IMG/VR virus record: IMGVR_UViG_2703718846_000007 | Location: 1-9,788 of that record | Source of the DNA: a virus | Taxonomy: Duplodnaviria > Heunggongvirae > Uroviricota > Caudoviricetes | Length of the DNA stretch: 9,788 nucleotides | Strand: one strand, 5' to 3' | Program-made: the position numbers and the translations under genes | Shown: piece after piece, positions 1 to 9,788 of the stretch | How the letters are laid out: every line of letters starts with the position of its first letter | Position numbering within the stretch: the stretch's first letter is position 1 | The notes under the pieces: generated by a model | Database searches by the model: none | The model's input: the letters and a program-made list of their open reading frames with translations, nothing else | What the model was told of the DNA's origin: nothing

Positions 1-1110
1 TTATCCCCTGAACCCTGGTGGAATTTCGGTGTCCGGTTCAGAAATGTGATTCACACAACGCTGGTTGTTCGTGCCGCTTACCGGGAGCAACCAGGGGTTT
101 TCAAAATTCCGGTCCGGTCCAAAAAACGTCGTCGCTCGCTGAACAAATTCCGTTCCCGCTTTCCCGGTCGCCGCCAGGTATCTCGCATAACGCCTCACAC
201 CATCCAGCATGGTCTCTGGTGGCACCCCCTCGCGCAATCTGGCCTTCCAGGCACTGAATGCGGATTTCTTCGGGTTTGCCCCGGCACGCAACGGGTATTC
301 CCGCCAGACCTGTTCGAACACATCCGGATAATCCACTCGTCCCACAGGCCGCCCGGTGTTTTCCGGGACTACCCGATCGGCTTCCCGCTGAATGGCGGAA
401 TCGACTTCAGGCTGCTGCAGTTGGTGTGATTGCTCCGCCCCTGCGGTCATCGCCTGCTGCACAGCGCCCGAATCGGCTTTCAGCGCATACGCCGAATCGG
501 CTTCCGGTGTCGTGCCTGCTGGCTGACCAGAATTTACGGTCTGAACATCCCCTGCCTGGTTCGTGGTGTTTTTTTCGCCATGAACCATAGTGTTTTTGTC
601 CTGTTCCTGTTCTTTCTCCTGCTCCTGTTCTTGGCTTCGAAGCCCCTTAAAAGCCCCTTCAAAGCCCCTTACCGAATTTCGGCTATTATTCCGCCTCACA
701 TCAAGATGGAAATCCGTTTTATATCTGTCGTAAAACGCTGACAGAAAAGCGTTTTCAGGTAATGATGCATACTCATTCCTGACACCTGCACAACGGTTAT
801 CGCCTGGCTTCAACGTTTCCCCAACCTGCCAGGCTGCCATTTCATGGACCCAGACCATCTCGGCATCATGGTCATAGCTACAAAAACCAGCTTCAACAGC
901 CCTTTTAAGCCCCTTTGAAGCCCCTTCCAGACCAAGCCCGGTTTCATGAGCAAGGTATAAAACTGGCAGGTAATACAAACCCAGCATATTTGCGTGAGGG
1001 GATGTCATCAGGTAAAAAGCAACAACTTGCGCTTCTGCACCCGCCTTTCTAAGTTCTCTCCCCGTTTCTCCCAGCCAGAATCGCGGAGAAACTTTTGCGT
1101 AATCACGCAT
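1..1110 (-). CDS. Phage replication initiation / replisome organiser protein (O-like), with a low-complexity QEQEQEKEQEQ linker between N- and C-terminal domains
   Basis: ORF-track frame 1..1221 with TAA stop at 1-3. I place the start at ATG 1108-1110 because GAGG lies 5 nt upstream, whereas ATG 1219-1221 has no Shine-Dalgarno. The N-terminus MRDYAKVSPRFWLGETG... resembles DUF1376-type initiators and the C-terminus YPDVFEQVWREYP...FVQRATTFF resembles the DnaT-like domain of phage replication proteins, both from memory. Confidence 0.8.
   Translation of the reverse strand: MRDYAKVSPRFWLGETGRELRKAGAEAQVVAFYLMTSPHANMLGLYYLPVLYLAHETGLGLEGASKGLKRAVEAGFCSYDHDAEMVWVHEMAAWQVGETLKPGDNRCAGVRNEYASLPENAFLSAFYDRYKTDFHLDVRRNNSRNSVRGFEGAFKGLRSQEQEQEKEQEQDKNTMVHGEKNTTNQAGDVQTVNSGQPAGTTPEADSAYALKADSGAVQQAMTAGAEQSHQLQQPEVDSAIQREADRVVPENTGRPVGRVDYPDVFEQVWREYPLRAGANPKKSAFSAWKARLREGVPPETMLDGVRRYARYLAATGKAGTEFVQRATTFFGPDRNFENPWLLPVSGTNNQRCVNHISEPDTEIPPGFRG
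640..670. repeat. Iteron-like direct repeats, cluster 1: three tandem AAGCCCCTT copies at 11-bp spacing
   Basis: Copies at 640-648, 651-659 and 662-670 (plus-strand reading), lying inside the initiator CDS. The three copies fall in three different codon phases of that CDS. Confidence 0.5.
897..926. repeat. Iteron-like direct repeats, cluster 2: two AAGCCCCTT copies plus one degenerate copy
   Basis: Exact copies at 907-915 and 918-926 and a degenerate copy (AGCCCTTTT) at 897-905, spaced 10-11 bp, inside the same CDS about 260 bp from cluster 1. Confidence 0.45.
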
Positions 1111-1327
1111 GGCTACCTCATCTGGTGCCGAACCTTCCTCCGGATATAATCTGTGGTTCCCAATCAACAGAACCAGAGGAGGTTCGACATGTATTTTTTG
1201 AAAAGCCTTTATCAGGCTCATGTATTAAATGTTGCAGCAACAAACCGCTGGTGTAACAGCCCCGAAATGCTCCCGGATTACAGAGCCTGGCTGCGCGCCG
1301 AAACATACCTTCGTCTCGACATATTGA

Positions 1328-1837
1328 TTAGCGAACTTCAAAAAGAGACTGCATCCATTCATAACCTTCAGGGTATCGACGCTGTTCGCATTCTGGTATC
1401 GCGCCATAGTGCTCTCTCAATAATTGAAGTGCGTCATCTCTCTTTTTCTGAACTGATTTTCTTGCTTCAACCAGCTCTGGAATCAGCGAATATCCCACCG
1501 AAAGTGATCCAATACCCACCTCATGTTGACGAGCAGTTACAAGATGTGCCATACAACCAGCGTGCTGGATTGACTCCCTGCTCAGAGGCTGAATGGGATC
1601 ACTCTCTGCTGAAGAAATACCAAGATTTGTATAATCCTCAATAAGCCCGGCACACGCTTCTGCATCAGCCAGCTTTATTCTGGTTTCCTTGCGCTGTTCT
1701 CTGGCTGACAAACGCCAGAGCAGCGCATTAGCTTTATGTATCAACCACTCTGCCAGCTCCACATCAGATAAACCGCCACGCCAGATGTGCGGACTGTTTT
1801 CGTAAACGCTCAGTGTCAATTTTTTGTCATTACTCAT
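1328..1837 (-). CDS. Hypothetical protein (169 aa) between the CII-like and initiator genes
   Basis: ORF-track frame 1328..1888, trimmed to ATG 1835-1837, which lies 13 nt after the upstream gene's stop. It is co-directional with the replication operon, and my hand count gives 58% purine at codon position 1 versus 48% for the overlapping plus-strand ORF. No family recognised. Confidence 0.5.
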   Translation of the reverse strand: MSNDKKLTLSVYENSPHIWRGGLSDVELAEWLIHKANALLWRLSAREQRKETRIKLADAEACAGLIEDYTNLGISSAESDPIQPLSRESIQHAGCMAHLVTARQHEVGIGSLSVGYSLIPELVEARKSVQKKRDDALQLLREHYGAIPECEQRRYPEGYEWMQSLFEVR

Positions 1838-1850
1838 ATTTATTACCCAA

Positions 1851-2276
1851 TTAATGCACAGCCAGAGTGTTTCCTGCCGGGCCACCACGATTCATCTGAT
1901 CGAACAGAACGATCGCTGATGCAACGAAATCATCAATATCTTTCACCAGCCGTTCCTTCGTCTCTACCAACTCCCGAAAATAAGCGGAACTGTGGCTGCG
2001 CATTCGGGCCACCAGCGGAGGCGGCATCGCTTTTTCGATCGCTGGTAACAACGCCTGAATTTTTTTAACCGCATCAGGAGTGTCTTTCTCCACCCAGCGG
2101 AAAATTTTCTGGGTGTTACGGCCCAGGGCTTCCGGATGGCTGTCGTCGTACAATTCCGGGAACGTCATACCGAGTTCGAAATACGCTTTGGTAATTTTCG
2201 CAGCCGGAACTTTTTCACCGTTCAGATGTGCCCAGGCATTCATCGCCATGCGGATGTGTTCATGCTTGATTTTCAT
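1851..2276 (-). CDS. YdaT-family protein (CII-like regulator, historically annotated as toxin YdaT)
   Basis: 141-aa ORF immediately downstream of the Cro-like gene, with an ATGA start/stop overlap at 2273-2276. Size, position and the MKIKHEH... N-terminus fit the YdaS/YdaT arrangement of Rac-like prophages (recollection, not searched). Confidence 0.7.
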   Translation of the reverse strand: MKIKHEHIRMAMNAWAHLNGEKVPAAKITKAYFELGMTFPELYDDSHPEALGRNTQKIFRWVEKDTPDAVKKIQALLPAIEKAMPPPLVARMRSHSSAYFRELVETKERLVKDIDDFVASAIVLFDQMNRGGPAGNTLAVH

Positions 2277-2500
2277 GAATCACTATTCCTCTCGCCATGA
2301 GTGGTATCCTTCTTTTTGTAAAGTTCTGGGTTCAAAGATAACTTCCCCTTGGAGTATGCTGCGGCTTCCGCAGCCCTCCCCTTTGGAACTATTTCACCAG
2401 GTCGCCTACGCCACATGTAAATAGCTTCACGGGTTATCCCATAAAAATCGGCAACCCTCTGAACAGAACCAAAAAACTGGACAAGTTCATCAACTCGCAT
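2273..2500 (-). CDS. Cro-like HTH transcriptional regulator (YdaS family)
   Basis: 75-aa ORF with a strong Shine-Dalgarno (AAGGAGGG) 4 nt upstream of ATG 2498-2500. It is divergent from the repressor gene and carries an HTH-like segment VQRVADFYGITREAIYMW. Confidence 0.8.
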   Translation of the reverse strand: MRVDELVQFFGSVQRVADFYGITREAIYMWRRRPGEIVPKGRAAEAAAYSKGKLSLNPELYKKKDTTHGERNSDS

Positions 2501-2596
2501 TTAGCCCTCCTTCAATCTAATTATTTTTAGACTAAATGATAATTTTTTTTAGGTCAATGCAATCTAAAATAATTTATATTCAATTCACGGGAGAAA
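2501..2596. promoter_or_regulatory. Divergent immunity control region (pR-like and pRM-like promoters with operators)
   Basis: 96-bp AT-rich intergenic region between divergent cro-like and cI-like genes. Minus-strand TTGACC (plus 2552-2557), 17-bp spacer, TAGTCT (plus 2529-2534). Repeated TTTTAG / CTAAAA half-sites, e.g. TTTTAGG-N11-ATCTAAAA at 2545-2568. Confidence 0.6.
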
Positions 2597-3244
2597 ATGA
2601 TGGAAAGCCTTGGCATCAGGCTAAAGAGACTCAGAAAAGATAAGGGACTAACCCAAGTAGAACTGGGTAAGCTTTCAGGTGTAACTGGAGTTACTGTAGG
2701 GTACTGGGAGAAGGATCTAAACGAACCTGGTAGTAAAGCTCTAAGTAAATTAGCCCAGGCATTAGGAACTACTGAGTCCTACCTCCTGTATGGAGTATCG
2801 TCTCCTGAATCATCTTTTATGCAGATCAATCCAGGCTCTCAGATCCCCTATTTTTCTTGGGGTGACGCGATTTCTTTCCTAATTTTAGAAGGAGAGAAAG
2901 CTATGGGAAATGTCGATAGGATCACCACATTCTTTGATGTCGAGGAAGGTGATTTTGCCGTTTCAATGCCTGATGACACTATGCATAACCCAACTGGGTC
3001 GCCGAGCATCCCAGTTGGTGCCACAGTGATCCTAAGGCCTAGAGAAAGTTATAAAAATGGTAGCATCGTCGCTGTAATAGTTCCGGATCCGCTTACAAAT
3101 GAACCATCTATGACTATAAAAAAATTAGTTATTGATGGAAAGCTTGCGTACTTAAGCCCTCTTAATCCACGCTATCAATCATCTTTGCTTACACCAGAGT
3201 GTAAAATTGTTGCCGTAGCAAAAGGCGTACAGTTCAACTTATAG
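2597..3244 (+). CDS. cI: CI-like phage repressor with N-terminal HTH and C-terminal S24 (LexA-like) autopeptidase domain
   Basis: 215-aa ORF with GGGAG upstream. N-terminal HTH LTQVELGKLSGVTGVTVGYWE; C-terminal motifs AVSMPDD (catalytic Ser), TIKKLV (catalytic Lys) and LSPLNPRY align with lambda CI GNSM, TFKKLI and LQPLNPQY. Confidence 0.9.
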   Translation: MMESLGIRLKRLRKDKGLTQVELGKLSGVTGVTVGYWEKDLNEPGSKALSKLAQALGTTESYLLYGVSSPESSFMQINPGSQIPYFSWGDAISFLILEGEKAMGNVDRITTFFDVEEGDFAVSMPDDTMHNPTGSPSIPVGATVILRPRESYKNGSIVAVIVPDPLTNEPSMTIKKLVIDGKLAYLSPLNPRYQSSLLTPECKIVAVAKGVQFNL

Positions 3245-3266
3245 CCCCGTCAAACCCTTTAATCTG

Positions 3267-3292
3267 AGGTCGGCAATGCCGACCTTTTTTTT
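3267..3292 (+). terminator. Rho-independent terminator downstream of the repressor gene
   Basis: Hairpin GGTCGGC-AAT-GCCGACC at 3268-3284 followed by eight T at 3285-3292, 23 nt after the cI stop. Confidence 0.75.
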
Positions 3293-3312
3293 AAATTATT
3301 TTAGATTTTCGC

Positions 3313-3341
3313 TTGACTAAAAAACTAAATACTTTTAGATT
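3313..3341 (+). promoter_or_regulatory. pL-like sigma70 promoter for the early-left operon
   Basis: TTGACT (3313-3318), 17-bp spacer, TAGATT (3336-3341). Flanked by two copies of TTTTAGATTT (3299-3308 and 3333-3342), the same half-site motif seen in the cI/cro intergenic region. Confidence 0.5.
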
Positions 3342-3515
3342 TATCACATACCCAACCCGCCCCACAGAATGCAGGGCAATACTTCGAGTTACCAGGCAGT
3401 GGTCAGGGGTTAAGTAGCCAGCCCGAGGCGTAAGAACATGACGGCAGGGTTCAACTTTAACTATGCAGCAGGTTTTTGTTCCGCCACCCCGGCGTTAAAG
3501 GGAAATGAGGTCAGC

Positions 3516-3668
3516 ATGGATACTATCGATCTTGGCAACAACGAATCTCTGGTATACGGCGTGTTTCCAAACCAGGACGGTACGTTCACCGCGATGACGT
3601 ATACCAAAAGCAAAACGTTTAAAACCGAAGCTGGCGCGCGTCGCTGGTTAGCCAGAAATACTGACTGA
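3516..3668 (+). CDS. Small early protein (50 aa), YdaF-like / DUF1391-like
   Basis: ATG 3516 with GAGG 5 nt upstream; TGA stop at 3666-3668. The ORF-track frame extends upstream to 3438 but that start is less well supported. Family assignment is from memory only. Confidence 0.55.
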   Translation: MDTIDLGNNESLVYGVFPNQDGTFTAMTYTKSKTFKTEAGARRWLARNTD

Positions 3669-3679
3669 TGAGGTTAACG

Positions 3680-4315
3680 ATGGAATTTAAAGATTTACCG
3701 CTATCAATCCAGGAGATTGCAGCACACACACTACGTCAACGTCTGAACGAAGCTATGGCTGAATCTGCAACGAAAGAAACCATTGATAACATGGCTCGTA
3801 ATGTGCACGATGCGTTTACCGGATTGTATTTCTGTGCGTCTGTAAATAAACACGACCCAGAGAGTGTGGCAAAGAAAATTGCAGAAACGACAGTGCAAAA
3901 CATCAATACGAAACCAACCGAAGACGAAATTGACCAGCCTGCCAGTGAACAAAAGAAAGAAAAATCGCCATATGCGGGGAACATGTTTGTTTATGACAAA
4001 CTTATCCGAATTCGTGGCGAAATTCCGACTGAATACCTGGCAAAAATTCACCAGGCATTACTTAAAAATCTGGAAACGGAAGTATTTGATGGCAACACCA
4101 ACGGCTCCTTCGTGGTGTCAGCCCTCACAAAAGAGTGGGATACAGATAATCGCCGGAATGTTGCTACATGGTTATTCAGCAACAAAGCTGCTGCCCTGGA
4201 AGCTGCGGCCTGTATTTGCGACCTGCTAAGGACAGACCGCAAATACAACCTGGATGTGTATAGCTATATTTATGCTGAACACTATCCACTCTGGATTGAC
4301 TGGTTTAAAGGGTAA
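3680..4315 (+). CDS. Hypothetical early protein (211 aa), function unknown
   Basis: ORF-track frame 3668..4315. ATG 3680 has GAGG 6 nt upstream; the alternative ATG 3668 overlaps the preceding stop (TGATG). Soluble, non-repetitive protein; no motif recognised. Confidence 0.7.
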   Translation: MEFKDLPLSIQEIAAHTLRQRLNEAMAESATKETIDNMARNVHDAFTGLYFCASVNKHDPESVAKKIAETTVQNINTKPTEDEIDQPASEQKKEKSPYAGNMFVYDKLIRIRGEIPTEYLAKIHQALLKNLETEVFDGNTNGSFVVSALTKEWDTDNRRNVATWLFSNKAAALEAAACICDLLRTDRKYNLDVYSYIYAEHYPLWIDWFKG

Positions 4316-4412
4316 CACCTGCGGGACCGAGCCGACCAGCACCACGATTATTTTATCCTCCATTAAGGGGTGAATTAAAAATGGAGACCAACACGCTGCT
4401 ACGTGTGGTCGT

Positions 4413-4452
4413 GCGCCGGACACGGATAACCTTCCGGCATGCTCTTTAACAA
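4413..4452 (+). promoter_or_regulatory. Candidate processive-antitermination site: hairpin followed by an rrn-type boxA (TGCTCTTTAACAA)
   Basis: Exact 13-mer TGCTCTTTAACAA at 4440-4452 on the plus strand, preceded by hairpin GCCGGA-N12-TCCGGC at 4415-4438. Orientation matches pL-directed transcription. Confidence 0.4.
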
Positions 4453-4477
4453 TCTGGATATCCACAACAGCAATAAC

Positions 4478-4996
4478 CTACGGATTGCTGCTCAATGCTC
4501 TACCTATCTCTTCTTCAGATGGGGGCGGTATATAGTCATCATTGCGTTCAAATTTAAAGCGCGAATCACATTTCAGGCATTTAGAAATATGGAACTTATC
4601 ATGCTCACCAATTTCAACAGGTTGAAGTATTGCTATTACACCATGCTGATAGCAATTGGGACAGGCATAGTGAAAACATGTGTCTTCTTCGTCGAGGCTG
4701 TTCCTGAAAGCATAGACAAAATGCCCAAAACCAGTTTTGTGTATCGTATAGCATTCAAGTTTTCGATTACGCTCGTCAATTTCATGACATTTTTGCTTAA
4801 GCAAGAGTATTTCCTCGTACTGAAGCGCGAGCGTTTTCGCTAGCTCTGCGTTCTGTATTTGTAAGTCTGCCAGTTGGCGACGCATTTCGTAGACAGCCTT
4901 TTCACGTTCAGATTGGCTTTTTGCATCAAGTATTACCTGTAATAAATCAATCGAGACTTTAATTGCCGTTATTGATGAAGTTATTCCAGATAGCAT
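4478..4996 (-). CDS. Hypothetical coiled-coil plus zinc-ribbon protein (172 aa) on an antisense-oriented AT-rich insert
   Basis: ORF-track frame 4478..5113, trimmed to ATG 4994-4996 because a perfect TATAAT lies about 32 nt upstream. N-terminal heptad-like region RRQLADLQIQNAELAKTLALQYEEILLLKQK; C-terminal CPNC...CLKC cysteine pairs. GC is visibly lower than in the flanks. Confidence 0.65.
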   Translation of the reverse strand: MLSGITSSITAIKVSIDLLQVILDAKSQSEREKAVYEMRRQLADLQIQNAELAKTLALQYEEILLLKQKCHEIDERNRKLECYTIHKTGFGHFVYAFRNSLDEEDTCFHYACPNCYQHGVIAILQPVEIGEHDKFHISKCLKCDSRFKFERNDDYIPPPSEEEIGRALSSNP

Positions 4997-5007
4997 TCTT
5001 AACTCTC

Positions 5008-5060
5008 TGTGTTGTTGGGGTATCCGGATTATACAAATTTCTTGTTGTTGGGGAACAACA
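5008..5060 (-). promoter_or_regulatory. Promoter and candidate operators for the antisense gene
   Basis: Minus-strand TATAAT (plus 5028-5033). Two copies of TGTTGTTGGGG (plus 5010-5020 and 5043-5053); the second forms a perfect palindrome TGTTGTT-GGGG-AACAACA (5043-5060) over the -35 region. Confidence 0.5.
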
Positions 5061-5313
5061 GGAACCACCTCGCCTGATGTGGTTAAAAGCAGGCACACAA
5101 CACGAAAGCGCACGGCGAAGGTTTCTTTTCCTTAGAAGGCTTGTCGTTAGATTTCTTCGACCGTGCGCTTCCGGTTGTGGCAATCCGCGAAATGGCGCGG
5201 CGGTAAGTATGGCGGGGTTATCCTTACCCCCACTGGTAGCACCGGGTTGTCAGGTTGACCATACGCTTAAGTGACAACCCCGCTACAACACTCCATGTTG
5301 AGTATTGACCTTT

Positions 5314-5354
5314 GGCGGCATCAGTTTAATTGCTGGCTGATGTCCGCCCTTTTT
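5314..5354 (+). terminator. Rho-independent terminator (plus strand)
   Basis: Stem GGCGGCATCAG (5314-5324), 12-nt loop, stem CTGATGTCCGCC (5337-5348), then CTTTTT (5349-5354). Confidence 0.6.
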
Positions 5355-5550
5355 AAAGTGAATTTTGTGATGTGGTGAATGCGGCTAAGCGCACGCGGAA
5401 CAGTTAAAAGACCATTTGTTCTCCGTATCAATACTTATGGGTAGGTACTTGCAGGCGGGTCCCTGTATTCCGGCGTTAATTGTTAACTGGTTAACGTCAC
5501 CTGGAGGCACCAGGCACCGCATCACAAAATTCATTGTTGAGGACGCGATA

Positions 5551-5739
5551 ATGGAAACGTTATTACTCAATTCCACTACGCCTGAGACTCGTTTTGAAAT
5601 TGGCGTTATCACTGGCGATAAAAACTTTATTGAAGATGCCATTAATCAGATAAAGCATGAGCCAGATTCATCAAATGAGATATGCATTGCTTCAATGCTG
5701 GCCCGTTTACGCCCGACGCAAAAAGGATGCTGGCAATGA
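5551..5739 (+). CDS. Hypothetical small protein (62 aa)
   Basis: ATG 5551 with GAGGA 7 nt upstream; stop TGA 5737-5739 overlaps the next start. The ORF-track frame begins at 5416 but upstream in-frame starts lack a Shine-Dalgarno and use rare codons. Confidence 0.45.
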   Translation: METLLLNSTTPETRFEIGVITGDKNFIEDAINQIKHEPDSSNEICIASMLARLRPTQKGCWQ

Positions 5740-5939
5740 ATACCACATTTGCACTTGTTCTGACGGTTTTTCTTGTTTCCGGTGAACCAGTTGACATGGT
5801 TATTGGCGTATACAGCTCAATGAAAGAATGCATGGCTGCCGCAGATGAACAGAAAATTCCCGGTAACTGTTATCCGGTCGATAAAGTTATTCACCAGGAT
5901 AATAACGAAATCCCGGCAGGACTTAAAACAGCGCCGTAA
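5736..5939 (+). CDS. Hypothetical small protein (67 aa) with an N-terminal hydrophobic segment
   Basis: ATG 5736 overlaps the upstream stop (ATGA), with AAGGA 8 nt upstream. N-terminus MNTTFALVLTVFLVSG looks like a signal peptide or transmembrane helix. The ORF-track frame starts at 5682. Confidence 0.5.
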   Translation: MNTTFALVLTVFLVSGEPVDMVIGVYSSMKECMAAADEQKIPGNCYPVDKVIHQDNNEIPAGLKTAP

Positions 5940-6016
5940 TTGATATTCGGTTTCATTTTTATATGTCAGCAATGACAGGGATTTGTTCACCCTTAAATCT
6001 GTAATGAGGTTTATCA

Positions 6017-8482
6017 ATGAGCACTGATAAAGAAGAATTTGCATTATATTGTGAAGCAAAAAATGACAAAGTCAGAAAACGCCTTGGAATTAAAGGTGGT
6101 TTTTACTGGACTACAGCAAAAAAATTATCTGTTGCCATCTCCCGCTGCATTACCGCAATGGATGACAACGATTATGATGAAGACGACTTTAAAAAACCCG
6201 TCCGCGTCCATTTACCCGTTGTGAATGACCTTCCACCTGAAGGCGTGTTTGATACTGAATTCTGTAACCGTTACGAAAAAGGCGGGGAAGATGGCATCAC
6301 AATGGTATTTATCGCGCCCTCACCCTCTGCGCAGGACAAACCAGCCAACACTGACAATACCAACGTCAACGGCGAAGACATGACTGAGATTGAGGAGAAC
6401 ATGCTCCTGCCGGTTTCAGGTCAGATTCTGCCTGTTCGATGGCTGGCACAGCACGGCAGCGAAAAACCGATCACACACGTTTCGCGGGACGAACTGCGCG
6501 CATTACATAACGCACAGGATGAAAAACTTCCCGCCGTTACCGCGCTGGCTATCTCAAATAAAGCAGCGCAACTCGAACCGCTGGAGATTCGCGATCTCCA
6601 CAAACTGGTGCGAGACACTGACAAAGTTTTCCCCGCCCCCGTAAATTCGGACCTGGGACTGATAACTTCTTTTATCGAAGCATACCTGGACGCCGACTAC
6701 ACCGATCGCGGTCTGCTGACAAAAGAGTGGATGAAAGGAAATCGTGTTTCGCGTATCACCCGTACGGCTTCCGGTGCAAATGCCGGTGGCGGGAACAAAA
6801 CCGATCGCAATCCGAATTTAGTACACACCTTCGATACGCTGGATGTGGAGACTGCAGCAGCCACACTTCCGATGGATTTTAATATTTATGAAATTCCGGG
6901 TAGCGTTTATCGTCGCGCAAAAGAAATCGTCCTGAAAAGAGAAAGTCCGTTCAAAGAATGGTCCGCAGCACTTCGCGCAACCCCGGGTATTCTGGATTAT
7001 TCCCGCGCCGCTATTTTTGCACTTATCCGGAGCGCTCACCCTGAGTTTTATCACTACCCGGGACGCCTTCAGGGGTATATCAACGCCCACTTAACGGAGA
7101 CTGATCACGAGAACCCCAGCAAGGAAACTCTCACTGCTGCACGACATACACCGGAAAAAGATATCCTGGAAGAAGTTAACCGCGAACTGGCTGCTGAACG
7201 CGAAACAGAAGAAGAAAAAAATAATGAGGAAAAATCACAACCGTCTGACGCAATGGCAGATGAACAGGCAACGGCCGAAGCAATGGAGCCGGATACAACT
7301 GAACATCACCAGGACACGCAATCGCTGGATACTCAGGAACAGGTAGATCCAGTTAAACAGGTAAAAGTTACCGCTGACGAAGTAAACAAAATTATGCAGG
7401 CAGCCAATATCAACCAGCCTGATGCCGACAAAATACTGGCAGTCCATCGCGGTGAGTTCGTTGACGGAATTAGCGACCCGAATGATCCGAAATGGGTTAA
7501 GGGGATTGAAACCCGCGATTCTGTGAACCAGAACCTGCCCGAATCGGAACAAAACGACCAGAAAGCGGAACAGAACAGCCCAAATACGTTACAAAACGAG
7601 CCAGAAACGAAACAGCCTGAACCAGAAGAGCAACAAGAACCGGAAAAAGTCTGCACCGCCTGCGGTCAGAGCGGTGGCGGCAACTGCCCTGATTGTGGCG
7701 CGGTGATGGGCGACGCAACATACCAGGAAACATTCGATGAAGAGAATCAGGCTGAAACTCAGGAAAATGATCCGGAGGAAATGGAAGGCGCTGAACATCC
7801 GAACAATGAGAATGCTGGTAACGATCAGCATCACACCAGCGATAGTAAAACTGGCGAGGCGGCAGATCCCTTAATTACGGTGAACAGTCATCACATTATC
7901 ACATCCACCAGCAGGGTATGGCACCATCTGATGATCGACCTTGAAACGATGGGAATTAACAGCAATGCGCCCATCGTAGTTATTGCTGCAGTGTTTTTCG
8001 ATCCGCAGACCGGGGAAATCGGACCGATATTTTATGTTGTCATCAGTCTGGTTGACGCAATGGACAAAGGTGCTACTCCCGATGGTGACGTAATCGAATG
8101 GTGGCTGGCGCAGTCCAGCGAGGCCAGATCTGCAATATTGGTAAATCAAATTCCGTTAGATGATGCACTATTGCAATTGCGGGAATTTATCGACGAAAAC
8201 TCCGGTGAATTTTTTGTTCGGGTCTGGGGAAATGGAGCCAGCTTCGACAACGTGATTTTACGCCGTTCATATGAACGGCAGGGTATCCCCTGCCCGTGGC
8301 GTTACTGCAACGATCGCGATGTGCGCACAATCGTTGATCTGGGAAAAGCCATAGACTTCGATGCCAGAACAGCTATTCCGTTCGAAGGCGTACGCCATAA
8401 TGCACTGGATGATGCCCGCCACCAGGCAAAACAAGTTTCAGCTATCTGGCAAAAACTGATCCCGAGTCAGGTTGATTTTTAA
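6017..8482 (+). CDS. Large prophage exonuclease (821 aa): RecE/exodeoxyribonuclease VIII-like N-terminal region, acidic low-complexity linker, CxxC-x9-CxxC zinc ribbon, C-terminal DEDDh-type 3'-5' exonuclease domain
   Basis: ATG 6017 with GAGG 7 nt upstream. C-terminal about 196 aa (nt 7892-8479) carry DEDDh motifs MIDLET, GNGASFD and HNALDD. Zinc ribbon CTACGQSGGGNCPDCG near nt 7651-7700. N-terminal segments (NTNVNGEDMTEIEENMLLP..., DYTDRGLLTKEWMKGNRVS...) resemble enterobacterial exonuclease VIII proteins as I recall them. Confidence 0.85.
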   Translation: MSTDKEEFALYCEAKNDKVRKRLGIKGGFYWTTAKKLSVAISRCITAMDDNDYDEDDFKKPVRVHLPVVNDLPPEGVFDTEFCNRYEKGGEDGITMVFIAPSPSAQDKPANTDNTNVNGEDMTEIEENMLLPVSGQILPVRWLAQHGSEKPITHVSRDELRALHNAQDEKLPAVTALAISNKAAQLEPLEIRDLHKLVRDTDKVFPAPVNSDLGLITSFIEAYLDADYTDRGLLTKEWMKGNRVSRITRTASGANAGGGNKTDRNPNLVHTFDTLDVETAAATLPMDFNIYEIPGSVYRRAKEIVLKRESPFKEWSAALRATPGILDYSRAAIFALIRSAHPEFYHYPGRLQGYINAHLTETDHENPSKETLTAARHTPEKDILEEVNRELAAERETEEEKNNEEKSQPSDAMADEQATAEAMEPDTTEHHQDTQSLDTQEQVDPVKQVKVTADEVNKIMQAANINQPDADKILAVHRGEFVDGISDPNDPKWVKGIETRDSVNQNLPESEQNDQKAEQNSPNTLQNEPETKQPEPEEQQEPEKVCTACGQSGGGNCPDCGAVMGDATYQETFDEENQAETQENDPEEMEGAEHPNNENAGNDQHHTSDSKTGEAADPLITVNSHHIITSTSRVWHHLMIDLETMGINSNAPIVVIAAVFFDPQTGEIGPIFYVVISLVDAMDKGATPDGDVIEWWLAQSSEARSAILVNQIPLDDALLQLREFIDENSGEFFVRVWGNGASFDNVILRRSYERQGIPCPWRYCNDRDVRTIVDLGKAIDFDARTAIPFEGVRHNALDDARHQAKQVSAIWQKLIPSQVDF

Positions 8483-8548
8483 TGTTCAACCCTGATCGCC
8501 GTCTCCGAATTATATTGGCGGCGGTCATGCTGTAAGGCACGTGACCAC

Positions 8549-8800
8549 ATGTACGAATTAACTCTATCGCCAGCAGAGATTCAAGAGATCACGAGATACG
8601 AGCGATACACAAGACAGCAACACCAGTTAAGGCTGCACGGAATTCCATTTGTAACCGGACCTAAAAATGAACCAATAGTTCTTCGCAAGGACGTTCCGCT
8701 AGGGCTGACATCGATACCGGATGCATCTGAACTGGTTTCTGCCGAACCTGATTTTGAGGCACTAAATAATGGGAAGACCAAGAATAAACAAAAAAGATAA
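8549..8800 (+). CDS. Putative excisionase / recombination directionality factor
   Basis: 83-aa ORF immediately upstream of int, overlapping it by 32 nt, as lambda xis overlaps int. No sequence similarity to lambda Xis recognised, so the call is positional. Confidence 0.45.
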   Translation: MYELTLSPAEIQEITRYERYTRQQHQLRLHGIPFVTGPKNEPIVLRKDVPLGLTSIPDASELVSAEPDFEALNNGKTKNKQKR

Positions 8801-9788
8801 TGTACTGCCACCACGGGTTAGATCGAATGGTTACAGTTACGTATGGAAACCCAAAGGAAGCACGAGAACGATAAGGCTCGGAAGGGTGCGGGAAACCAGC
8901 GTGGCTAAAGTCTGGCAAAATTATGAACTGGAAAAGGCAAAACTCCACGACATAATGACCGTCGCTAAATTATGGCACATGTTTATGGACTCCCCTGCAT
9001 TTACAGAATTGGCACCCCGAACTCAAAAAGATTATCGACAACATCAAAGGGCGTTGCTGGCGGTATTCGGAAAAGTGCTTGCTGATAATGTAAAAATTGA
9101 GCAGGTAAGAATTTTCATGGATAAACGGGGGCTTGAGAGCAAGACCCAGGCAAATCATGAACTGGCAAGTCTGAGTCGCGTATATGGATGGGGGTATGAG
9201 CGTGGGTATGTGAAAAATAATCCATGCAAAGGAGTCAGAAAATTCACGCTTAAAGCCCGTACTGTTTACATCACCGATGAACAGTATGCTGCGATATATG
9301 CGGAAGCAATTCCACAGTTACGTATTGCAATGGAGATATCCTATCTTTGTGCGGCAAGGCTCGGTGATGTACTCGAGCTGAAATGGCAGGATATTATGGA
9401 TAAAGGGATTTACATTGAGCAAAACAAGACCGGCACTAAACAAATCAAGGAATGGTCTCCGCGATTACGCACAGTGATCCAATTAGCCCGAAATGTATCT
9501 TCCGGCACATGCGAGTATGTGATCAACACAACCAAAGGCGGGAAGGTCATAGCTAAAACGCTGAACAACTGGTGGAATCAGGCTAAACGTGCAGCCGAGC
9601 AAAAAGCCGACGTTCCGTTTGGGTGCAACTTCCATGACATAAAAGCCAAAGGGATTTCAGATTACGAAGGCAGCAGCCGCGACAAACAAATTTTCAGTGG
9701 GCACAAAACAGAAAATCAGGTGTTGATTTATGATCGCAAAACAAAAATCACGCCAACACTGGATCTACCTCTTGTGGTCAGTAAGTAA
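8769..9788 (+). CDS. int: Tyrosine recombinase, lambda-family phage integrase
   Basis: 339-aa ORF with GAGG 9 nt upstream and TAA stop at 9786-9788. The catalytic region aligns to lambda Int: RLGDVLELKW (Arg-I), YIEQNKTGTK (Lys), FHDIK (His), GHK (His) and LIYDRK (Tyr). The N-terminus is basic like the arm-binding domain. Confidence 0.9.
   Translation: MGRPRINKKDNVLPPRVRSNGYSYVWKPKGSTRTIRLGRVRETSVAKVWQNYELEKAKLHDIMTVAKLWHMFMDSPAFTELAPRTQKDYRQHQRALLAVFGKVLADNVKIEQVRIFMDKRGLESKTQANHELASLSRVYGWGYERGYVKNNPCKGVRKFTLKARTVYITDEQYAAIYAEAIPQLRIAMEISYLCAARLGDVLELKWQDIMDKGIYIEQNKTGTKQIKEWSPRLRTVIQLARNVSSGTCEYVINTTKGGKVIAKTLNNWWNQAKRAAEQKADVPFGCNFHDIKAKGISDYEGSSRDKQIFSGHKTENQVLIYDRKTKITPTLDLPLVVSK

Follow-up and report, generated by a model that had tools for sequence, protein, structure and literature searches.

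Repeat arrays conserved as DNA within a prophage replication initiator gene form a likely replication origin in Escherichia coli

We analyzed a 9,788-nt stretch of viral DNA (IMG/VR record IMGVR_UViG_2703718846_000007, positions 1 to 9,788; hereafter the window), a piece of a lambdoid (Qin/Rac-like) Escherichia coli prophage that spans its immunity and early region. Its replication initiator gene carries two arrays of a 9-bp repeat, AAGCCCCTT on the plus strand and AAGGGGCTT on the coding (minus) strand. It is likely that both AAGGGGCTT arrays are binding sites for the N-terminal domain (N-domain) of the initiator and that, with a low-GC stretch and a polypurine tract in the same gene, they make up the replication origin of the prophage. 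We favor this reading because a DNA-conserved array in an initiator context matches the origin layout of phages lambda and SPP1. An earlier reading of the window, made from its sequence alone (the original prediction), had proposed a phage origin here, and this is supported by the DNA-level conservation of the repeats, by the initiator position of the gene, and by the helicase or loader genes that accompany it in relatives. What we infer from this arrangement is that the initiator binds and bridges the arrays, where the duplex unwinds, how the helicase is recruited, and that the site acts as an origin. Coordinates of the features are collected in Table 1.

Five exact copies of AAGCCCCTT were found on the plus strand (640-648, 651-659, 662-670, 907-915, and 918-926), and it is the sole 9-mer that reaches five copies in the window. 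Dinucleotide-preserving shuffles held a mean of 0.11 copies, and five were reached in 0 of 200 shuffles. Identical 9-mers at an 11-bp offset occurred four times, compared to 0.056 in 2000 first-order simulations. Every copy falls inside the minus-strand open reading frame (ORF) 1..1221; multiple short repeats inside an initiator ORF, above chance, are thus present as in iteron origins of the lambda and SPP1 kind. The original prediction had counted five exact copies and one degenerate copy. All are real, the degenerate one being weak, as it matches at 6/9 in phase (896-904, ACAGCCCTT) and at 7/9 when shifted by one base (897-905, CAGCCCTTT). A GGCTT half-site occupies 633-637, and another weak in-phase copy (6/9) is present at 885-893; no copy within two mismatches was found upstream of the initiator ATG in the window. 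The two clusters described earlier were confirmed, whereas the spacing of 10-11 bp given for them was not: it is exactly 11 bp inside each cluster. On the coding strand, AAGGGGCTT occupies all three codon phases, read as KGL, (E)GA, and (x)RGF, and the peptides encoded by the copies are LEGASKGLKRAV and VRGFEGAFKGLRS. The earlier argument from codon phase, that the repeats are kept as DNA and are not a side-effect of a peptide repeat, was therefore correct.

Conservation was examined across the family defined by the N-domain. A search with this domain returned 911 proteins at E <= 0.001, spanning enterics, Proteus, Acinetobacter, Burkholderia, Cupriavidus, and Achromobacter. The comparative set contained 79 distinct homologous genes or loci from genomes of 37-68% GC. 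Aligning homologous initiator genes was the check suggested with the original prediction, and in these 79 genes the 9-mers are conserved where synonymous sites vary elsewhere. The cluster 2 codons GAA GGG GCT TCN AAG GGG CTT were almost invariant, while the third base of the spacer codon varied. Normalised codon entropy was 0.17 at the iteron codons (E62, G63, A64, K66, G67, and L68) versus 0.81 at 60 other conserved residues (Mann-Whitney p = 1.3e-4). Specifically, G63 was encoded by GGG in 74/75 genes and L68 by CTT in 71/78, and the neighbouring conserved T-G-L residues took all synonymous codons save at G60 (GGC in 58/64). The other frozen codons (K155, P156, S159, G60, and E73) lie in cluster 1, in the adjoining anchor AGCCAAGA, or in in-phase half-sites, with S159 being AGC in 73/73 genes. 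The AGCCAAGA string itself is near-universal, even in 68% GC genomes. Exact 9-mers numbered 207 in gene nt 150-520 (371 nt) of 80 genes versus 19 in 463 kb of flanking DNA, a 170-fold enrichment.

In 78 relatives, cluster 1 keeps its position but can face either way; it always lies directly 5' of AGCCAAGA(CAR GAR)n, with 2-3 copies on an 11-bp pitch. It is inverted-only in 54 genes, where it encodes EAPxKPL (e.g., EAPSKPL), direct-only in 10 genes including the window (EGAxKGL), and mixed in 14. In the 75/02 Shiga toxin (Stx) phage, at 76% DNA identity, cluster 1 is already inverted. From the alignments, these flips indicate that function at cluster 1 does not depend critically on the direction of the sites. 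Cluster 2 encodes residues 62-75 (EGASKGLKRAVEAG), which coincide with the predicted helix 61-73 and in the structural model appear to form the putative recognition helix. A simple explanation of its fixed orientation is that the helix would gain prolines on inversion, whereas cluster 1 is free to flip in a disordered linker. Adjacent pairs within clusters (10-12 bp apart) were at 11 bp in 162/174 cases. With all copies oriented alike, the consensus lengthens to G-AAGCCCCTT-C and is nearly palindromic (GAAG-SSS-CTTC). The distances between clusters (243/244, 255-257, and 267 bp) are confounded by copy-number differences. In three relatives (L054, which equals L056; L077; and L045, at ~gene nt 440-520), the DNA of iterons plus (CAGGAG)n, with the sequence AAGCCAGGAGCAGGAG..., is kept but read as KPGAGAGAG, and the ORF continues into a C-terminal domain (C-domain); conservation of the tract, too, is thus at the DNA level. 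L084 is a separate case: it resembles the L074 type with a frameshift of 1 nt, which would point to a pseudogene or a sequencing error.

Across these genes, the repeats persist as DNA whatever peptide they encode, since the word is kept when both orientation and peptide change; this bears out the earlier claim of conservation at the DNA level. The frozen synonymous sites, the orientation flips, and the frame change together show, at the level of sequence comparison, that selection acts on the DNA of the 9-mers and of the purine tract as a duplex motif array. The same observations exclude an origin of the repeats as a by-product of a conserved peptide repeat, EGAxKGL. The protein sequence HETGLxxEGASKGL is indeed nearly invariant, as such a by-product would need, but the copies use three codon phases, synonymous sites are frozen only inside the 9-mers, inversion turns the peptide into EAPxKPL, and the tract survives frame changes. 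We regard the peptide explanation as refuted and leave it next to no probability.

An effect at the level of RNA or single-stranded DNA was also considered, either as a long-range stem or as local hairpins controlling translation or mRNA stability. In most relatives the two clusters are reverse complements of each other, and the predicted fold of the mRNA segment in the window is somewhat more stable than those of shuffled sequences (z = −2.6), local hairpins forming within both clusters. However, the direct clusters of the window and of other enteric members cannot pair, mixed orientations occur, and the word is conserved anyway. There is no Rfam match, and the strict 11-bp periodicity fits duplex DNA. 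Compensatory changes keeping inter-cluster pairing were not seen across the family, because the word is invariant. A long-range RNA stem in the window was rejected, given that the clusters are direct and the fold shows local hairpins only, and an RNA or single-stranded role in general is very improbable.

Two variants of the arrangement were observed in passing. A divergent subfamily (L070, L074, L076, L078, L083, and L084) has up to four in-phase copies of mixed orientation in cluster 2, with variant words (e.g., AAGCCCCTT-AAGGGGCTT-AAGGCCCTT) and helix residues that shift correspondingly (KRASKAL); it could serve for the study of helix-site co-variation. In L078, two more 9-mers (4282 and 4537), spaced like the first pair, lie 1097 bp downstream of it, which suggests a tandem paralogous initiator gene.

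Beside cluster 1 lies a T-rich tract (566-636; T 0.49, pyrimidine 0.75), as the original prediction had noted. It is a polypyrimidine/polypurine tract, antisense of the (CAR GAR)n codons that encode SQEQEQEKEQEQ. Family-wide, the purine fraction of the tract is 0.80-0.84 and its GC is 0.09 below the locus mean. A second dip, of −0.12 to −0.14, occurs family-wide at −110..−70 relative to the AGCCAAGA anchor, and the lowest-GC stretch of the window gene lies between the two clusters (GC 0.37 over 700-780). We consider this stretch one candidate unwinding region and the purine tract a second candidate element. An imperfect inverted repeat adjoins the tract and is followed by a T-run on the plus strand, where a terminator-like hit was recorded; promoter and terminator scans of the window were at chance level overall. 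In the lambda origin, a palindrome lies to the right of the AT-rich region, which the inverted repeat recalls by position.

The start of the initiator was assigned to the ATG at 1110. The NCBI Prokaryotic Genome Annotation Pipeline (PGAP) places the start of the gene in the 99.2%-identical VG35A2 locus at the same ATG, a GAGG lies 5 nt upstream, and PHROG 1701 ('DnaD-like helicase loader') matches from this Met onward (E 1.5e-145). The extension of the ORF up to 1221 is probably not used. The PHROG annotation of the repeat-bearing protein is replication protein, and a match to PHROG 6251 was weak (E 3e-4). The protein of this module is annotated just as 'DNA-binding' or 'hypothetical' and belongs to no Pfam family. 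An AlphaFold2 model made with a 58-sequence alignment predicted a confident N-domain of winged-helix topology (residues 8-135; predicted local distance difference test, pLDDT, above 90), followed by a disordered stretch (~146-256) and a helical C-domain. The linker is disordered and acidic. Among the viral structural neighbours of the predicted N-domain, several are annotated as replisome organisers or replication proteins.

The C-terminal tail of the protein (NHISEPDTEIPPGFRG, residues 346-369, window 4-75) resembles the C-terminus of DnaT. It matches positions 156-179 of NF002770 with 17.8 bits versus a cutoff of 201, and in a sequence search of the PDB the tail alone gave matches, all weak (6aep, 2ru8, and 9zbt; E 0.02-0.07). 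The tail is common to relatives ending in ...IPxGFRG and may be a docking peptide for a host protein. Identification of the initiator as DnaT (primosomal protein I) was rejected, as only the last 24 residues match the DnaT model; the label 'primosomal protein I' in some phage records is due to this tail.

The gene is modular. The C-domain half (window 1-596) is shared by 2166/5426 complete E. coli genomes at 94-95% identity, whereas the whole gene, with the N-domain half, is present in just 530/5426. A sharp mosaic junction lies at ~596, at the end of the purine tract, and C-domains differ widely across the N-domain family. Phages Tritos and 606R7 carry the C-domain of the window at ~95% nucleotide identity with another N-domain and without AAGCCCCTT; in hhalign, only the C-domain part of the window initiator matched the Tritos initiator. 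In both, two clusters of four CGTGAC repeats with 10-11 bp spacing lie 260 bp apart, and the second is followed by a (TCTTTATCTGTA)3 tract (12-bp x3). The N-domain of the Tritos initiator gave a sub-threshold full-length match to Phage_rep_org_N and a sub-threshold match to HTH_Crp_2. The same layout with a different word means that the repeat type tracks the N-domain type, and the comparison of these loci shows the two changing together. The window protein is thus a two-domain initiator with a predicted DNA-binding N-domain whose type the iterons follow.

This mosaicism could also be turned into an explanation of the repeats, namely that tract and iterons are kept as a linker promoting homologous exchange of N- and C-modules and mark a recombination junction with no origin function. 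The junction directly after the tract, the 2166 genomes that share one half as opposed to the 530 with the whole gene, and the wide variation of C-domains agree with it. It leaves unexplained the 11-bp phasing, the frozen synonymous sites in cluster 2 some ~250 bp away, the orientation flips, and the different iterons in the same layout of the other N-domain class. We consider this explanation quite improbable, and the formation of junctions is more likely a consequence of the conserved element.

In the early-right operon, the initiator gene comes after the cro-like and YdaT/cII-like genes, and in relatives dicB and recE-type genes lie to the right of the locus. The gene following the initiator in 10/10 sampled relatives encoded a DnaB-type helicase (five), a DnaC/IstB-like loader (four), or a lambda-P-like protein (one), and the downstream gene overlaps the initiator stop codon in relatives. 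The O157:H7, VL46, and 75/02 Stx relatives carry a DnaC/IstB-like ATPase directly downstream. From the gene order, the helicase and loader neighbours in relatives, and the predicted domains, it follows that the initiator gene occupies the 'O' position and has the two-domain shape expected of a phage initiator.

Table 1. Features of the initiator locus and its surroundings. Coordinates refer to the window unless another locus is named.
Feature	Coordinates	Strand	Remarks
Replication initiator gene	1..1110	-	369 aa; stop codon at 1-3
Winged-helix N-domain coding region (predicted)	706..1089	-	aa 8-135
Exchangeable C-domain	4..339	-	aa 258-369; includes the DnaT-like tail
Iteron cluster 1	640..670	+	three exact copies, 11-bp pitch; encodes VRGFEGAFKGLR in the disordered linker
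Iteron cluster 2	885..926	+	two exact and two weak in-phase copies
In-phase half-site	629..637	+	coding strand AAGCCAAGA; AGC CAA synonymous sites frozen
Purine tract (CAR GAR)n	589..636	-	encodes the SQEQEQE linker; contained in the T-rich tract
Lowest-GC stretch of the gene	686..780		between the clusters
Imperfect inverted repeat	557..587		12-pair stem including G-T pairs, 7-nt A/T loop
YdaT/cII-like gene	1851-2276	-	
P22-Cro-like gene	2273-2500	-	
cI-like repressor gene	2597-3244	+	
CGTGAC clusters and repeat tract, Tritos (L003)	3645-3683, 3905-3943, 3602-3637		same in 606R7 (L001)

Several points weigh against an origin at this site. The T-rich tract, which the original prediction noted alongside the repeats with the AT-rich unwinding region of lambda as its precedent, is not AT-rich (GC 0.44 vs. 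0.47 for the window). A strongly AT-rich DNA unwinding element (DUE) was looked for and only modest dips were found, 0.09-0.14 below the GC of the locus. The initiator had no Pfam match at E <= 0.01 or at E <= 1, including Phage_rep_O, and Phage_rep_org_N did not match the window protein at E <= 1; the initiator is, by sequence search, no detectable homologue of lambda O or of Phage_rep_org_N. The window stops at the initiator stop codon, leaving no room for a helicase or loader partner to show, and the closest relative (E. coli VG35A2, L004; 99.2% identical to window 1-1300) has a DUF1627 gene downstream and no DnaC-like gene. In the literature searched, no experimental report of binding or replication was found for any family member, and no description of the family or its iteron; a search for the 9-mer returned only unrelated papers. 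Papers on Eru types class the 75/02 Stx module as Eru4 and describe no origin or iterons. Lastly, some relatives have extra copies 12-45 bp upstream of the ATG.

These upstream copies, which account for 11 of the 19 exact copies outside the clusters, mostly in Acinetobacter, mean that the 9-mers plausibly also act as operators, and in those relatives they may be autoregulatory. Exact 9-mers at this position, in the leader or promoter region, were recorded in L017, L022, L030, L032, L033, L039, L043, L060, and L067. In the strict form of this idea, the 9-mers are operator or roadblock sites for autoregulation of the operon and not an origin. Plasmid Rep proteins do autoregulate via related repeats, which would agree with it. 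On the other side, the conserved arrays are intragenic, multi-copy, helically phased, and abut the DNA-conserved purine tract, helicase or loader genes follow the initiator as in the lambda and SPP1 origin layout, and the window has no upstream copy. An operator function in place of an origin is hence unlikely, and the two roles are not mutually exclusive.

If the arrays are an origin, the following sequence of events can be proposed. Transcription from the early-right promoter after derepression would make the initiator, whose N-domains would line up next to one another along a single helical face, at the 3 + 1 sites by the linker tract and also at the 2 + 2 sites ~250 bp upstream. The two arrays could then be bridged or wrapped into an O-some-like complex, and the duplex would open in one of the two easily melted segments flanking cluster 1. 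The C-domain would recruit the replicative helicase, in relatives through the phage DnaC-like loader or DnaB-type helicase; in the window prophage, recruitment may proceed via host proteins through the DnaT-like tail.

Functionally, the best reading by analogy is an origin-in-initiator of the lambda/SPP1 kind, an arrangement already known from lambda. The lambda origin lies mid-gene in O and consists of iterons and an AT-rich tract (PMC7466680), and SPP1 oriL lies inside gene 38, with AB boxes and a DUE (PMC5737612). As in the lambda origin (lambda and Stx phages, with the O protein), the proposed origin would sit inside an early-right operon gene, that of the initiator, with repeated initiator sites followed by a strand-skewed, presumably easily opened tract that encodes the interdomain linker. 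As in lambda O, the N-domain appears, on comparison of sequences, to be specific for its own iterons and the C-domain exchangeable and partner-specific, and in relatives a helicase loader gene comes next. The window initiator differs from lambda O in having no detectable sequence homology to it, and the array differs from the lambda origin in its 9-bp words on an 11-bp pitch with variable orientation, in its two arrays ~250 bp apart, one of them inside the coding sequence of a folded DNA-binding domain, and in its (CAR GAR)n tract of ~45-50% GC, which is not AT-rich. Lambda O iterons are ~19-bp sites. SPP1 oriL (G38P, Phage_rep_org_N) has its repeats, along with a DUE, in the organiser gene, with loader and helicase genes next; the proposed arrangement of repeats and candidate unwinding segments resembles it, and the predicted two-domain shape of the window protein resembles proteins annotated as phage replisome organisers. 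The Tritos class, which shares the C-domain of the window, provides a further link through its sub-threshold Phage_rep_org_N match. Unlike SPP1, the window protein lacks such a match, the host is Gram-negative, and the iteron sequence is different.

Two further systems offer partial resemblance. Plasmids with a winged-helix Rep (RepA_N initiator 4pta; pPS10, R6K, and F) typically have iterons of 17-22 bp outside the rep gene, whereas those in the window measure 9 bp and are intragenic; nor, for a phage, is there any evident logic of handcuffing or copy control. The ori/crr of satellite phage P4 has 8-bp repeats in both orientations, grouped in two clusters that lie apart and are each required. 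The likeness goes no further: P4 alpha is a primase-helicase, and the P4 sites are separated by kilobases and do not fall within the coding region of a winged helix. What sets the present arrangement apart is the near-palindromic 9-bp word on an 11-bp pitch, two arrays ~250 bp apart with one overlapping the putative recognition-helix codons and the other flipping in orientation, and a (CAR GAR)n tract rather than an AT-rich DUE.

A wider reading, which we offer tentatively as somewhat less probable than its opposite, is that this is a widespread and so far undescribed class of phage origin in Gamma- and Betaproteobacteria, where the codons for the protein's recognition helix themselves make up the array that it binds. 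Protein constraint would then lock cluster 2, the linker-borne cluster 1 would be able to flip, and (CAR GAR)n would be the unwinding element. If so, one set of nucleotides both determines protein specificity and forms the DNA target, the two must co-evolve together, and the frozen 9-mer would provide a simple rule for locating origins in prophages with this N-domain.

The analysis offers a concrete assignment of origin and initiator sites for a replication module common in E. coli prophages. The N-domain type is present in ~530/5426 complete E. coli genomes, including O157:H7 prophages and 'Eru4' Stx phages, and just 22 phage records contain it, most of them calling the protein hypothetical or DNA-binding. 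Beyond E. coli, the module reaches Acinetobacter, Klebsiella, Proteus, Burkholderia, and others. Since the output of Shiga toxin is under the control of phage replication, origin/initiator typing is of practical interest. The locus is also an unusually clean natural case of overlapping codes, in which nucleotides held by DNA function, by protein function, or by both can be told apart.

Upstream of the initiator gene, the segment 1153-1888 contains two overlapping ORFs on opposite strands, each of which matches a curated family. The plus-strand ORF (1153-1644) matches the NCBIfam 'ECs1072 family phage-associated protein' (104 bits vs. a cutoff of 70) and is annotated by PGAP, and the minus-strand ORF (1328-1888) matches PHROG 8304 (E 5e-119). 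One of them is probably a shadow ORF; a substitution-phase test did not distinguish between them. Neither Tritos nor 606R7 has this ~740-bp segment, and in both the cII-like gene lies immediately next to the initiator.

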